In this document: positions 54,101-58,273 of the stretch, piece after piece
Position numbering within the stretch: the stretch's first letter is position 1
Layout: every line of letters begins with the position of its first letter
Virus record (IMG/VR): IMGVR_UViG_3300029893_000005
Span: 7,904 to 71,903 of that record
DNA length: 64,000 nucleotides
Direction: 5' to 3' (one strand)
Source: a virus
The notes under the pieces: model-generated
What the model was told of the DNA's origin: nothing
What the model saw: the letters and a program-made list of their open reading frames with translations, nothing else
The model's database searches: none
Program-made: the position numbers and the translations under genes

Positions 54101-54367
54101 CTACGAGAGGTCCTTCACCTTCACGATGAACTTCTCGCCGAGGGCTTCGACGATGGCGTTGACCTGGGCGCGGGTCACCCGCTTGAACTCGGGTACCTCC
54201 AGGCTGGGCCGATAGACCCAGCGCCCGTCGTGGCTGTCGAGCGGCCACAGGAACTGGAGCACCGCTCCCTTCCGCCGCTTCAGGCTGCGCTCGGTGCAGA
54301 AGTCGACATACTGTCCCTGCCGCACCTCGATCTTCTGGCTGTTGATCTTCAGGATCGCCTGTCTCAC
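54101..54367 (-). CDS. Hypothetical protein
   Basis: GTG start overlapping the polymerase stop codon. Confidence 0.55.
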   Translation of the reverse strand: MRQAILKINSQKIEVRQGQYVDFCTERSLKRRKGAVLQFLWPLDSHDGRWVYRPSLEVPEFKRVTRAQVNAIVEALGEKFIVKVKDLS

Positions 54368-56898
54368 GCTGCTTCCTCCCTCATGGTGTCGAGCCACTCA
54401 CGGTAGCCCATGTGGTACACGCCCTGCTTGTCGGTGTATCCGTTGGGCCCCATCAACTCTCCGAGGCTGGGCCCCAGCATCCCCTCGACGTCGAGGGGCA
54501 CGGGGATCTTGAAGGGGTAGTCCATCTCCCGCATCAGGGCCTCCTGCTTCTCGGCCACGACCTCGGCCACGCCCAGCGGGATTTCCGCCCAGATAGCGTC
54601 GTGAACCACGTTGACCGGGATGAGGCGCTGGTTGTCGCGAAAGGTGCGGATCAACTTCCACAGGGTGCAGTCGCTGGCCGTGCTCTGCACGGGGAAGTTA
54701 GCCACCTGATTCTCAACGTGCCAGTCCGCCCGTCCCGTGAACTCGAAGGACCGCTGCCGCCCCCAGGGAGTGGTGATGAGGTCACCGCGGTAGGCCGCCT
54801 CGATCAGCGACTCCTGCCACGCCTTCAGTTCGGGGAACCGCCTGTGGAACTTCTTGTGGAAGTCCTCGGCTTCATGCAGCGACAACTTGTTGCGGCTGGC
54901 AAAGGTCTTCGGGGTCTCGCGATAGATCATCGCCAGCACTCCGACCTTCATCATTTCACGCTTCTTGGTGCCCTTCTTGCACTCTTCCAGCGGCAGCCCC
55001 CACAGGTCGGAGGCCATCACCTGATAGATGTCGCCGGCGAGGCAGGCCTTGATGAGGTTGCGGCTGTCGCACAGCCACGCCGCGATGCGCACCTCCACCT
55101 GGGCGAAGTCGAACTCGGCGAAGGCGTAGCCCGGCTGGGCTTGGAAGAGTTTACGGAAGGTGGGGTCCTTCTTCAGGTTCTGGATATTGGGGCGGGTGGA
55201 CGACAGGCGGCCGGTGACGGCGCCCTCCTCCCCGCTGTCCCCCTCACCGCGGTCCGTCTTGCACAACTGGTACTCGGTGTGGATCCGTCCGTCCACGATG
55301 TGGTGCTGCAACGGGGTGAGGAACTTGTTGCCGAGGTTGTCCCACTCCTTGAAGGCGACGAGGTACTTCCAGGCCTTGTGCCCGGCTGCCAGTTCGGGCA
55401 AGACCTCCTTCTTGTCGAGTTGCGGCTTGCCCGTCTTGGTGCGGCGGTGGACGATGGCGCCCGTGGTCTTGACCAGGGCGTACTGGCAGATGGGGGAGTT
55501 GGGGGAGAACACCCCGCCGAACCGCTTAGGCAGGTCCCGCTCCACCGCCTTCACCTCGGGCATCCGCCGCATCTTCTGCAGGATCTCCCCGGCCCATCGC
55601 TTGCTGGCGGTCTCCAGCGCACGGCAGTAGTGAGCGTCTGCCGGCAGCCCGTTGAGGGTGGTCTGCCCCAGCGCCACGATGGCGTCCCGCAGCAGCGTCT
55701 CGTAGACCGGCGGGGCCTGGACGTGCTTGATAGCATACTCCCGCAGCAGCATGGTGTTCCACACATCCCGCCCGTTCATGTCCGCTACCAGTTGAATGGG
55801 GACGTCCGCCAGCGAGGCGACGGGCTTCTGCTTGAGGGATCGCAGTCGCTCGTTCTCGGCCTCCACTGCTTCCCAGGCTGCGCCCTTCCAATTCTCGATG
55901 CCGAGCAGGTGATCGCACAGGGACTCCAGGCTGTTGCCGATCTTACCCAGGTCGAGCGAGGCGAAGGTCATCATGGTGTCGTGGACGCCCTTGAGCATCC
56001 AGTACAGGTTGGGCTCGAAGTAGTGGGCGAGGCAGGAGACGTCGACGTGGACGTTGTGCCCGTCGAGGATCTTGCCCTTCAGGCACGACAGGAACTCCCG
56101 CGTCATGAGCCGTTTCGGCACCACCCACACCGGCTCGTCCAGGCTGGTGCCGAAGCCGACGCACACGAAGGGTACCTTCGGCATCCAGTAGGTGAGCATG
56201 TCGGGGGCGTGCTCCTTCGCCTTCTTCGGGCTGCCCCACTCGCAGTCGAAGGTCACGACCTCGGCCCGCAGGATCTGCTTGCGCAGGGTGGCGAGGTCCT
56301 CCCCGCCGGTCACCAGCCGGATGTCAGGCTCCCGCTCCTGCACGCCCTCGATGATCTCGGCGGCGCGGGTGAAGATGCGGGTGTACTCCTCCGTGCAGTC
56401 GTTGCCCCGGATGTGGTACGACGGGTGGTAGGTGGTGAGCAGGTGGTAGGGGCCGGCGTTGTAGGTGCGCTTGCGGGCCTCGTTGACGGTTTTGGGGCCC
56501 TCCGGCCACAGCGCCTGCAGGGCGATAGCGCCCAGGGCGACCACGACCTTCGGCTTCAGCCGAGCGATGTCCCGGGCCAGATACTGCCGGCACAGAGCGA
56601 TCTGGTCTTCGTCGGGCTTGCCGGTACGGCAGCGCACGGCGTTGGACAGGGCGTAGGTCCCGCCCCAGGCGTCTAGCCAGGGCTGCAGCACGGCGCCGGG
56701 GTCGCCGCTGAAGGGGAAGCCCTCCTCGTCGTCCACCTCGTCGGGGGCTCCCCCCACCAGGAGGATGTCGACCTGGGTGCTGGTTGTGGAGATGGTGGGG
56801 ACCTTCCAAGTCGTACACCCGGCCTTCAGGCCGCAGGCGTCGCACAGCCGTGGATCGTACTCTCCCCGTCCAATGGGGTAGAAGGTGGGCTCGCTCAT
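54364..56898 (-). CDS. polA: Family A DNA polymerase with an N-terminal family-4 uracil-DNA-glycosylase-like domain and 3'-5' exonuclease
   Basis: UDG-like: CDACGL...C, NAVRC, TYHPSY. Exonuclease: FDCE, GHN...D. Polymerase: TGRLSSTRPNIQN, FDFAQVEVRI, R.MMKVGVLAMIY, NFPVQSTASD, VHDAIW. Confidence 0.9.
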   Translation of the reverse strand: MSEPTFYPIGRGEYDPRLCDACGLKAGCTTWKVPTISTTSTQVDILLVGGAPDEVDDEEGFPFSGDPGAVLQPWLDAWGGTYALSNAVRCRTGKPDEDQIALCRQYLARDIARLKPKVVVALGAIALQALWPEGPKTVNEARKRTYNAGPYHLLTTYHPSYHIRGNDCTEEYTRIFTRAAEIIEGVQEREPDIRLVTGGEDLATLRKQILRAEVVTFDCEWGSPKKAKEHAPDMLTYWMPKVPFVCVGFGTSLDEPVWVVPKRLMTREFLSCLKGKILDGHNVHVDVSCLAHYFEPNLYWMLKGVHDTMMTFASLDLGKIGNSLESLCDHLLGIENWKGAAWEAVEAENERLRSLKQKPVASLADVPIQLVADMNGRDVWNTMLLREYAIKHVQAPPVYETLLRDAIVALGQTTLNGLPADAHYCRALETASKRWAGEILQKMRRMPEVKAVERDLPKRFGGVFSPNSPICQYALVKTTGAIVHRRTKTGKPQLDKKEVLPELAAGHKAWKYLVAFKEWDNLGNKFLTPLQHHIVDGRIHTEYQLCKTDRGEGDSGEEGAVTGRLSSTRPNIQNLKKDPTFRKLFQAQPGYAFAEFDFAQVEVRIAAWLCDSRNLIKACLAGDIYQVMASDLWGLPLEECKKGTKKREMMKVGVLAMIYRETPKTFASRNKLSLHEAEDFHKKFHRRFPELKAWQESLIEAAYRGDLITTPWGRQRSFEFTGRADWHVENQVANFPVQSTASDCTLWKLIRTFRDNQRLIPVNVVHDAIWAEIPLGVAEVVAEKQEALMREMDYPFKIPVPLDVEGMLGPSLGELMGPNGYTDKQGVYHMGYREWLDTMREEAA

Positions 56899-56916
56899 TG
56901 CATCCTCCGGGAATAG

Positions 56917-57028
56917 TACACGACGAGACTGTGGAGTCGAACCACCACCCCGCCCTGGGGTATTGCAGGACTCGAACCTGCGTCAGGGTGCTACCCTGCC
57001 GGTAACCCGCCGTTATCCTCGTCGTGTA
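56917..57028 (-). ncRNA. Structured RNA module with two tRNA T-arm-like hairpins inside an 11-bp closing stem
   Basis: UACACGACGAG/CUCGUCGUGUA; GCAGG-UUCGAGU-CCUGC; GUGG-UUCGACU-CCAC; CAGGGU/ACCCUG. Confidence 0.65.
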
Positions 57029-57031
57029 TCT

Positions 57032-57163
57032 TGGTGGGGCGAGCAGGACTTGCACCTGCCTATTGGAGGGGAGGTAAGCAAGTGTTGCCGACTCTGCCTC
57101 CCGCCCGCTCCCCGACTCATCGCCGGACGGTTTCGGGCTCTGCCGCCTAGTGGTATCCGCCCC
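57032..57163 (-). ncRNA. 132-nt tRNA-like RNA with acceptor stem, T-arm and encoded ACCA end, but no canonical D or anticodon arm
   Basis: GGGGCGG/UCGCCCC 7-bp stem plus A-CCA; GCAGG-UGCAAGU-CCUGC; long arm GGGAGG...CCUCCC. Confidence 0.65.
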
Positions 57164-57166
57164 GGA

Positions 57167-57370
57167 GGTCCCGCAAGGCACGTCCTTGTTGCCCGCCCGA
57201 CGAGCCCGCCGAAGCGGCTTGAGGGCTCGTCAGGTGTCGGAACCCCACAGAGCGAATCGGAGTCGCCTCCCCGCAGTCCCGCCGCTCGTACCGCTCAAGC
57301 GGCGCTCGGCGGTACGAACTCGCTCGGGCCGGGGCGTATGTTCAGTAGCCCGGTCCGAACTTGCGGGACC
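57167..57370 (-). ncRNA. ~205-nt multibranch structured RNA module
   Basis: Closing stem GGUCCCGCAAG/CUUGCGGGACC; internal stems GUUCGUACCGC/GCGGUACGAGC and UGACGAGCCC/GGGCUCGUCG; GNRA and UUCG tetraloops. Confidence 0.65.
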
Positions 57371-57385
57371 ACGGGAGGGCGAACG

Positions 57386-58204
57386 CTAGTCGTCGTCCTC
57401 CTCGGTGACGGAGAACAGGCCTTCCTTGGCGTCGAGGATGCGGATGCCGTTCTCCTCCAGGAGCCCCTGCACCCGGGACGGGGTGGCCACGTCCGGGCCG
57501 AACTTGTCCTGCACGAGGTCCACCACCGACTTCAGGCCGTACTTCTTGCCCGGCCTGAGTTTCCGGTAGAGGGTAGCCACGTACTTGGTGAGCGCCGCCC
57601 GCTGCTCCTCCGTCAGCCCCGACTTCTTGGCGGAGGTCTCCTCGGACTTCTTGGCCGCGGCCTCGGCGTCACCCGACTTCGGCGGAGCCGGCTCGGGGGG
57701 CAGGGCGCCCTCCAGGTAGGTGTGCAGACGGCTGACCTGCTGCCCCACCTTCTCGATGGCGGTCTCCAGTTCGCCCAGCCGCCCCTCGATCTTGGCGATC
57801 TGATCGCTGGTCACGGCCGACACCGCTTTCGGGACCTTCGTCTCCAGCCCCTTCAGCGCCTCGAACACCGGCCCCAGGTCGACCTCGGCGGGCGCCGCCT
57901 TCTCGGCCTTCGCCTTCTTCTCGGGCAGCGGCTCGGACTTGACGCCCTTCTTGGGGGCGCTGCGCAGGGCGTCCTCGACGAACTCCTGCGGCAGGTTCAT
58001 GTCCTCGTCGTCCTCCTCGACGTCGGGGATCTCGTCCACGTCGTCGACGTCCGGAACTTCGTCCTCGTCGCCGTCATCGTCGTCGTCCAGCCCGTCGTCG
58101 TCGTCGTCCAGCCCGTCGTCGATGACCGGGGCGGGCGCCGCCTTCGGCTTGTTCTTGCTGCCCTTCGGGCGGCCCGGACCCTTCTTCGTTGCCGTCACTC
58201 CCAT
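57386..58204 (-). CDS. AT-hook + long acidic tract protein with coiled coil and a C-terminal helical domain
   Basis: KKGPGRPKGSKNK AT-hook followed by an Asp/Glu tract; ATG at 58204 with GGAGG SD. Confidence 0.7.
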   Translation of the reverse strand: MGVTATKKGPGRPKGSKNKPKAAPAPVIDDGLDDDDDGLDDDDDGDEDEVPDVDDVDEIPDVEEDDEDMNLPQEFVEDALRSAPKKGVKSEPLPEKKAKAEKAAPAEVDLGPVFEALKGLETKVPKAVSAVTSDQIAKIEGRLGELETAIEKVGQQVSRLHTYLEGALPPEPAPPKSGDAEAAAKKSEETSAKKSGLTEEQRAALTKYVATLYRKLRPGKKYGLKSVVDLVQDKFGPDVATPSRVQGLLEENGIRILDAKEGLFSVTEEDDD

Positions 58205-58244
58205 GTGCTTTCCTCCTGGAGTTGGGATATTCGCTCGCTCACCC

Positions 58245-58273
58245 ATCCTAGCAAATCTTGTGAAGATTGTCTA
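58245..58273 (-). promoter_or_regulatory. Sigma70-type promoter with the operator in the spacer
   Basis: TAGACA, 17 bp, TAGGAT; ATCTTGTGAAGAT at 58255-58267. Confidence 0.7.

Follow-up and report, generated by a model that had tools for sequence, protein, structure and literature searches.

A 112-nt closed tRNA-derived RNA with two T-arms and no anticodon upstream of polA in a groundwater phage is probably a non-decoding tRNA mimic

Introduction

Bacteriophage T4 encodes a stable RNA, rnaC (species 1 RNA, NC_000866 70908-71046), that adjoins the tRNA genes, carries a T-arm at its 3' side and has, to our knowledge, no known function. Phage tRNA-like RNAs devoid of an anticodon have been on record since the description of T4 species 1 RNA, and we know of none with an assigned function. 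Other phage RNAs are substrates of tRNA-processing enzymes, such as the CI leader RNA of phage P4 and the C4 leader RNA of phage P1, which are processed by RNase P.

YrlA RNAs are about 110 nt long, have their ends paired in a long stem and mimic tRNA by means of T and D arms, with no anticodon (PMC4201824). They are defined by a permuted order, in which a T arm is followed by a closed acceptor stem-loop and a D arm, and by the motif GNCGAA(N)G (PMC4201824). [quoted passage not shown] In plant mitochondria, the so-called t-elements are tRNA-like folds located in polycistronic transcripts, in which processing enzymes create the ends of mRNAs (PMC1920247).

The RNA described here is a 112-nt module located immediately upstream of the polA gene of a phage. 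Like T4 rnaC, it is a phage non-decoding RNA in the 110-140 nt range, in which a canonical T-arm stands by an acceptor-like terminal stem, within an array of tRNAs or tRNA-like elements and in the orientation of its neighbours. However, rnaC contains a single T-arm and differs in its interior, whereas our module combines two T-arms with a 12-bp closing stem and has no true tRNAs next to it; the two RNAs show no sequence similarity, and neither rnaC nor rnaD of T4 contains a twin T-arm. The module shares with YrlA a length of about 110 nt, a long end stem, tRNA-like arms and the lack of an anticodon. In contrast to the permuted domain and the single T-arm of YrlA, its elements are arranged as D-like arm, hairpin, T-arm, hairpin, and T-arm. 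Moreover, YrlA is encoded next to Ro60/Rsr, whereas the 79-kb record, with a completeness of about 74%, gave no match to a TROVE (Ro60/Rsr) gene at E-values up to 1. With respect to t-elements, P4 CI and P1 C4, which are processed by tRNA enzymes with the occasional release of a small RNA, processing of our module is only predicted; moreover, its terminal stem exceeds an acceptor stem in length, and a second T-arm is present.

Results

Genomic context of the module

The source record is a 79.5-kb IMG/VR virus with a G+C content of 65%, obtained from subsurface and rock metagenomes (groundwater phage). The window, i.e., the whole 64-kb stretch of this record that was analysed, carries on its minus strand a replication/recombination operon coding for an SNF2 helicase, an AT-hook protein, UDG-PolA, RecA, a DnaB-like helicase, a Toprim primase, and SbcCD-like proteins. 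No tRNA-repair or tRNA-modifying genes were detected among the 15 replication-arm proteins scanned. The module is located between the AT-hook protein gene and polA, as follows:

57386-58246, minus strand: AT-hook protein gene, upstream border of the gap
56899-57385, minus strand: non-coding gap of 487 nt from the AT-hook protein gene to polA, containing three structured modules
57029-57163, minus strand: M2, an upstream tRNA-like module with a T-arm (57059-57043), a 7-nt acceptor 3' strand, an A, and CCA (57034-57032)
56917-57028, minus strand: the 112-nt module
56896-56916, minus strand: spacer of 8 nt, GGAGG Shine-Dalgarno sequence (56908-56904), and ATG (56898-56896) of the UDG-PolA gene
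54364-56898, minus strand: UDG-PolA gene (polA), matching Pfam UDG and DNA_pol_A

The distance between the end of the module and GGAGG, which a preliminary description of this DNA had placed at about 8 nt, is indeed 8 nt. The 487-nt gap is strongly folded (z = -6.4). A coding function of this region was ruled out, given the lack of GC3 bias: the G+C content at the three codon positions is 0.61, 0.69, and 0.69, as compared to a GC3 of 0.91 in the flanking genes. Neither a promoter, in a scan for the sigma-70 type only, nor an intrinsic terminator was found in the gap.

The upstream neighbour M2 has a canonical top half, consisting of a 7-bp acceptor and a 5-bp T-stem with discriminator A and encoded CCA. 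Its T-loop is UGCAAGU, with a G at position 55, a D arm is not evident, and its overall fold is not above that of shuffled sequences (z = +0.34). Spacers of 3 nt set the modules of the gap apart; the CCA of M2 is separated from the 5' end of our module by 3 nt (AGA), a spacing that resembles that of tRNA arrays.

Structure of the module

The module consists of a closing stem, P1, which encloses five hairpins:

57017-57028, minus strand: P1 closing stem, 5' strand, UACACGACGAGG, paired with 56917-56928
57000-57012, minus strand: hp1, D-arm-like hairpin CGG-CGGGUUA-CCG, taken from the centroid fold and aligned to the D arm by the covariance model R1 (see below)
56984-56998, minus strand: hp2, CAGGG-UAGCA-CCCUG, with a 5-bp stem and the 5-nt loop UAGCA
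56965-56981, minus strand: T1, canonical T-arm GCAGG-UUCGAGU-CCUGC
56948-56960, minus strand: hp4, CCCC-AGGGC-GGGG, GG-loop hairpin that separates T1 and T2
56931-56945, minus strand: T2, second T-arm GUGG-UUCGACU-CCAC, 2 nt from the P1 3' strand
56917-56928, minus strand: P1 closing stem, 3' strand, UCUCGUCGUGUA, as given by the fold

The preliminary description had reported a perfect 11-bp stem around two T-arm mimics and two or three additional small hairpins. Its coordinates hold and the 11 pairs are all Watson-Crick, to which a terminal G-U pair can be added, so that P1 is 12 bp long (57028-57017 paired with 56928-56917); the sequences of both T-arms are as described, and the additional hairpins are three, namely hp1, hp2, and hp4. 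The first of these has a 3-bp stem and a 7-nt loop, CGGGUUA, which includes GGG. The second one occupies the position of an anticodon arm but does not have a 7-nt loop, and hp4 has a 4-bp stem and the loop AGGGC. All six helices of the module are free of mismatches.

T1 and T2 each match exactly the T-arm consensus GGUUCGANUCC (G53, U54-U55-C56-R57-A58, and C61). The motif GGUUCRANUCC (GGTTCRANTCC in DNA) occurs twice in the 64-kb window, both times in the module, as compared to 0.23 expected occurrences, and, apart from the T-arm of M2, no further hairpin of this type occurs in the 79-kb record. T1 has the same sequence as the T-arm of ordinary phage tRNAs in two other contigs (L002 and L003). 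It is also identical at 15 of 17 positions to the T-arm of M2, as already pointed out in the preliminary description, in which a duplication was suggested; this identity fits a local duplication, and the gap of a related phage (L006, see below) keeps one degenerate hairpin.

The minimum free energy of the module is -53.3 kcal/mol (z = -3.75), and none of 200 shuffled sequences was equally stable. The hp1/hp2 region can refold as a single long bulged hairpin, and in fact the minimum free energy and centroid structures disagree. Since the plus strand of the module folds about equally well, the assignment to the minus strand rests on the orientation of the T-loop motifs, on the G-U pair, and on the direction of the flanking genes.

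A perfect inverted repeat at the ends of the module, flanked by TA on both sides, may also recall a mobile or recombination element, either a MITE-like insertion bounded by inverted repeats of 11 bp or a tRNA fragment of the att type. The absence of the module from close relatives would fit this explanation, and 3' fragments of tRNAs are typical scars of att sites. However, the module is present in a single copy in the record, and the 9-mer CACGACGAG of P1 is found at only two sites in the window, which correspond to the two arms of the stem. In addition, pattern scans of viral and metagenome contigs gave no further copy, no integrase or transposase was present among the nearby genes checked, and the interior is made of perfect RNA hairpins on the transcribed strand. 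We therefore consider a mobile origin very improbable.

Comparison with known RNA classes

At gathering thresholds, Rfam gave no match in the window, and the Rfam tRNA model (29 bits or more) did not match the gap even at E-values up to 10. With default settings, ARAGORN found no tRNA or tmRNA either in the window or in the whole record. Relaxed ARAGORN searches (lower thresholds, intron and tmRNA modes) produced mismatch-ridden and mutually overlapping calls, which were rejected, and a permuted tmRNA call, with an untypical tag, was judged spurious. The best Rfam resemblance, and the only relevant match of the gap at E-values up to 10, was a sub-threshold, end-to-end match to tRNA-Sec (RF01852), with a score of 23.7 bits (E = 0.027) as compared to a gathering score of 47; the alignment needs an insertion of 25 nt in the anticodon loop.

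This weak match, which spans the whole module, raises the question of whether the RNA may be an odd decoding tRNA, similar to tRNA-Sec or to allo-tRNAs, with a 13-bp acceptor/T stack, T1 as anticodon arm (CGA), and hp4 as variable arm. ARAGORN in mitochondrial mode does read T1 as Ser(cga). However, the 8/5 stack can be drawn only with A-G and G-A mismatches at the junction, the score is below the threshold of 47 bits, and the default ARAGORN search was empty. The D region would be about 33 nt long, with an extra hairpin, five more closing pairs would extend beyond the putative ends, and no CCA is encoded. The counterpart of the T1 loop in the Aeromonas phages described below has a U at the would-be position 37. 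A canonical decoding tRNA was likewise discarded, as no cloverleaf was called and there is no 5-bp anticodon stem with a 7-nt loop (U33 and a purine at position 37) between the D and T arms. The RNA cannot decode because the loop of hp2 is 5 nt long and T1 is a textbook T-arm, found as such in ordinary tRNAs elsewhere. A decoding role is thus highly improbable.

The YrlA model (RF02553) was rejected too, with a score of 11.3 bits against a cut-off of 69, a match limited to T1 and a different order of the helices. The 5' strand of P1 reads GACGAGG at positions 57017-57023 (minus strand), which is one base off the YrlA motif GNCGAA(N)G; on a rough estimate, a near-match of this type is expected by chance in about 1 case out of 10.

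The presence of two T-loops in one RNA, beside a ribosome-binding site, had been taken in the preliminary description as reminiscent of platforms that bind the tRNA elbow, such as T-box and RNase P, or of a tRNA-derived chimera. According to the former explanation, an elbow receptor of the T-box stem I, RNase P, or L1 stalk type would sense a host tRNA in order to control polA. Our analysis speaks against it and supports the chimera. In fact, no T-box or RNase P match was obtained with Rfam, either at gathering threshold or at E-values up to 10, and no specifier or antiterminator architecture is present. Both T-loops are 7 nt long and belong to ordinary hairpin T-arms, and each has a GG loop as a potential partner; for this reason they resemble tRNA elbows rather than elbow receptors. 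The module is also not kept upstream of polA in relatives (see below). An elbow receptor is, in our opinion, exceedingly improbable.

Conservation of the locus in related phages

Structural conservation at homologous loci had been proposed as a check in the preliminary description. Three close relatives of PolA (P0002, P0003, and P0004) were found in 5.8 billion clusters, and their loci are syntenic with that of our phage, with an AT-hook-like gene, a gap, polA, and RecA further down. The module is absent from these loci, including those of the two closest relatives, whose PolA is 73-75% identical, and their gaps cannot be aligned with the gap of the window. In particular, the L006 gap is not significantly structured, and at the polA locus of L007 there is no gap at all. 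A scan of viral contigs for PolA gave no match, and neither did a BLAST search against phage GenBank sequences. In metagenomic contigs from four runs, some of which do not cover the module, its sequence is identical wherever covered. Since relatives lack the module and the metagenomic copies are identical, the window copy is a lineage-specific singleton with no covariation. Its absence from the two closest relatives indicates that it is dispensable for the phage lineage, and it could be young.

In the gap of L006, the closest relative with full context, one degenerate T-arm-like hairpin, UUGG-UUCAAG-CCAA, is located at about 2917-2932, at a distance of some 80 nt from polA on its upstream side. 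The sequence CCAAUA comes before this hairpin and also before the T-arm of M2 in the window. The hairpin is probably the counterpart of the M2 T-arm, which suggests that M2 may be older than the twin T-arm module.

A twin T-arm module in Aeromonas phages

A module with two T-arms is kept in six distinct T4-like Aeromonas phages, namely Aeh1, PX29, phiWae14, Ah1, phiAS5, and avDM12. In Aeh1 (AY266303; our locus L058) it is located at about 96.65-96.78 kb, in a 457-nt gap upstream of rI.1 that contains three tRNA-like RNAs. RNAalifold analysis of the six sequences gave 43 pairs, 8 of which show compensatory double changes, spread across the closing stem, the D arm, hp2, an inner stem, T1, and T2. 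Covariation therefore supports the helices of the Aeromonas-phage module. The loop of hp4 (GGGC) and both T-loops are invariant, and the stem of hp2 covaries while its loop varies. No Rfam model matched this module. It has no annotation in four of the six records and is labelled as 'tRNA-OTHER' in PX29 and as 'tRNA-Ala' in phiWae14, in both cases for the first ~75 nt only.

Beside this module, Aeh1 (L129) contains two further tRNA scaffolds, in both of which other sequence takes the place of the anticodon region. In the one at 1650-1770, an insert of about 60 nt is framed by D and T arms. The other one, at 1787-1905, is matched by the Rfam tRNA model with 53 bits, carries 53 inserted nt in its anticodon loop and terminates with CCA; it is inconsistently labelled as tRNA-Val in Aeh1 and as an intron-containing tRNA-Leu in PX29.

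A covariance model (R1) was built from the six Aeromonas-phage modules, a family that had been found by a pattern derived from the window. R1 aligned end-to-end with our module with a score of 17.8 bits (E about 3e-4 in 4 kb; next score 6.9), a result that lends support but is partly circular, and that comes mostly from the T-arms and the closing stem. The two modules have in common the order of the helices, the long closing stem and the 1-2 nt that precede its closing strand; the 5-bp hairpin with a 4-5-nt loop and the hairpin with a GGGC-type loop of the Aeromonas module have their counterparts in hp2 and hp4, respectively. However, T1 and hp4 are enclosed by an additional inner stem in the Aeromonas module, whereas the window module has only 2-nt linkers (AC and UG) in its place, and the R1 alignment marks this stem as non-paired in the latter. 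Unlike our module, that of the Aeromonas phages also has a canonical 4-bp D arm and longer junctions. No sequence homology is detectable outside the T-loops, and the modules lie upstream of rI.1 and polA, respectively, in phages whose host groups and neighbouring genes are unrelated. For these reasons, i.e., the partial circularity of the match and the lack of the inner stem in the window, we did not take the R1 score as a proof of homology: the two modules appear to have the same kind of architecture and are not proven homologues.

Recurrence of the layout in other phages

Viral contigs were scanned for two T-loop cores lying 18-32 nt apart, and at least 120 loci were found. Among the 124 matches listed, 63 consisted of a normal tRNA, of which T1 is the T-arm, followed by a trailing T-arm, and in 58 neither T-arm was within a called tRNA. 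Closing stems were more frequent than with shuffled flanks: among the matches listed, 7 had a score of at least 10 (vs. 1.0 expected) and 3 had a score of at least 12 (vs. 0.3 expected). The closed cases among them are the Aeh1 locus L058, L084/L122, L024/L119, L062, L114, L056, and L087. Most of these show a D-like GG hairpin, a short hairpin, a T-arm, a GG hairpin or segment, a T-arm and, after 1-2 nt, the closing strand. The loop equivalent to that of hp4 is GGGC in the Aeromonas phages, GGCU in L084, and GGAC in L114. Several analogues are located within phage tRNA arrays, and others, like our module, are found close to early or replication genes (ERF, SprT-like) of phages that lack tRNAs. 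When contigs of cellular genomes were scanned, 14 matches were obtained, all corresponding to a tRNA with a trailing T-arm and none of them closed.

Pattern scans specific for the window module, carried out on viral and metagenome contigs, returned only unrelated loci with a tRNA and a trailing T-arm, and no match was obtained when the L119 and L062 modules were compared by BLAST with the phages in GenBank. In the literature on two or duplicated T-arms and on phage tRNA-like RNAs, nothing relevant was found. The twin T-arm layout recurs in unrelated phages above chance. Our module can be regarded as a variant of the known, functionally obscure phage tRNA-like RNAs.

Among the loci L010-L128 (e.g., L048, L020, and L034), an ordinary tRNA in a phage array with a second T-arm 18-32 nt later is very common. 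In some cases, the trailing T-arm is followed by a repeat of the acceptor 3' strand and by CCA; because this strand is duplicated in the trailer, the 5' strand of the tRNA could pair with either 3' end. Many trailers begin with CGAG or CGAA directly after the discriminator base. We also observed a recurring motif made of a T-arm, (C)UCGCUGACCGAG, a AUUNGGUA-like sequence and sometimes another T-arm, in L044 (3886-3926, plus strand), L053, L054, L067, L069, L080, L089, and L102; this motif appears to be a conserved, unannotated RNA element of large phage genomes.

The high frequency of tRNAs with a trailing T-arm fragment, in both phage and cellular DNA, is also what would be expected if our module were a decaying remnant of a phage tRNA cluster, made of partly duplicated pieces and functionless by now. 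The phage record has no bona fide tRNA, its three T-arms all lie within one gap, and relatives lack the module, L006 having only a degenerate T-arm-like hairpin. However, neutral decay should have broken some of the helices, whereas all six are free of mismatches, including the closing stem of 12 bp, which has no equivalent in tRNAs, and the T-loops are exact. Moreover, closed twin T-arms are enriched in phages (among the matches listed) and covary in the Aeromonas phages. We regard a remnant as a quite unlikely explanation.

Discussion

The module at 57028-56917 (minus strand) is a 112-nt closed RNA derived from tRNA, with no anticodon, and is probably a real non-decoding tRNA mimic. We propose that it provides a tRNA scaffold that is excised from the operon transcript by host tRNA-processing enzymes, a proposal for and against which we see about equal weight. 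The module would be transcribed within the message of the replication operon, which extends from the AT-hook protein gene into polA. The 12-bp P1 and T2, which are seen as helices in the sequence, may stack coaxially as an acceptor stem does on a T-arm; the GG loop of hp1 may dock on one of the T-loops, as in the tRNA elbow, and T1 may form a second elbow with the GG-loop hairpin hp4. Because of its resemblance to the top half of tRNA, the module would be recognised by the enzymes of host tRNA maturation: RNase P would cut on the 5' side and RNase Z, RNase E, or exonucleases on the 3' side, and TruB and TrmA would possibly act on the T-loops. The predicted excision would split the upstream cistron from polA, leave polA with a leader of 18-20 nt and a free Shine-Dalgarno sequence, and release a compact and stable RNA of 112 nt.

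Different lines of evidence favour this scaffold. The two perfect T-arms, the mismatch-free helices and the strong fold z-score all argue for it, and so does the location of the module in a non-coding, tightly packed region with no internal promoter or terminator, at an array-like distance from the CCA of M2. The best Rfam resemblance is to a model of the tRNA clan (tRNA-Sec), the layout recurs in other phages, the Aeromonas modules show compensatory changes and the model R1 has our module as its best match. T4 rnaC, with a T-arm and an acceptor-like stem beside tRNA genes, the YrlA RNA of M. smegmatis and the mitochondrial t-elements can be cited as precedents. Since several analogues lie inside phage tRNA arrays, their processing together with the tRNAs is to be expected. 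On the other hand, excision is made less probable by the closing stem, which has 12 bp instead of 7, since a paired leader and trailer make a poor substrate for RNase P and RNase Z, as well as by the 2-nt spacer, the 4-bp stem of T2, and the lack of a 3' CCA. The absence of the module from the closest relatives also weakens the proposal, and the support that comes from the Aeromonas phages is reduced, given that the inner stem is missing in the window and that the search pattern was derived from the window itself.

A closing stem longer than a tRNA acceptor stem, and thus unfavourable to efficient processing by RNase P and RNase Z, is instead compatible with a purely structural element acting in cis on the operon mRNA, with neither excision nor any function in trans. 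Such an element might be a 5' cap-like stabiliser or insulator that protects the polA mRNA from 5'-end-dependent decay; alternatively, it might be a barrier to 3' exonucleases that act on the upstream transcript, or keep the polA ribosome-binding site free from sequestration by upstream structure. The stem ends 8 nt from the Shine-Dalgarno sequence, the gap has no promoter or terminator and is unusually structured over its entire length, all features that suit this explanation. However, a stabiliser would not need the T-loop consensus, of which two perfect copies are kept, relatives with a 73-75% identical PolA manage without the module, and the same layout is found inside tRNA arrays and upstream of unrelated genes. 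We therefore hold a purely cis-acting role to be rather unlikely. The preliminary description had left the choice between a cis-regulatory leader and a released non-coding RNA. The unrelated contexts of the analogues and their presence in tRNA arrays make the released RNA likelier, whereas a cis-regulator specific for polA did not find support: since relatives lack the module and analogues are located upstream of unrelated genes, neither a riboswitch dedicated to polA nor an elbow receptor of the T-box type is likely.

If the excised scaffold that we propose were to act in trans, the module might be a 'twin-elbow' tRNA mimic that phages have repeatedly evolved or exchanged, and that serves, once released, as a decoy or sponge for a host factor that reads the T-arm or the elbow of tRNA. 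Its target may be a tRNA-targeting defence nuclease, RNase P, a modification enzyme, or a Ro-like quality-control protein. We consider this extension unlikely as things stand.

What recurs in these phages is an elaborate layout, in which two T-arms, each with a possible GG-loop partner, are held within one long closing stem. Elements of this kind are missed by annotation or mislabelled as 'tRNA-OTHER', 'tRNA-Ala', or 'tRNA-Val'. Aeh1 and its relatives, which are cultivable Aeromonas phages, offer a tractable system for studying the roles of tRNA mimics. If the module is processed by RNase P and RNase Z, it would represent a phage version of tRNA punctuation and would explain how a polA mRNA with a short leader is generated in the middle of an operon. 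If it does serve as a decoy, it would belong to an undescribed class of phage RNAs directed against the host.
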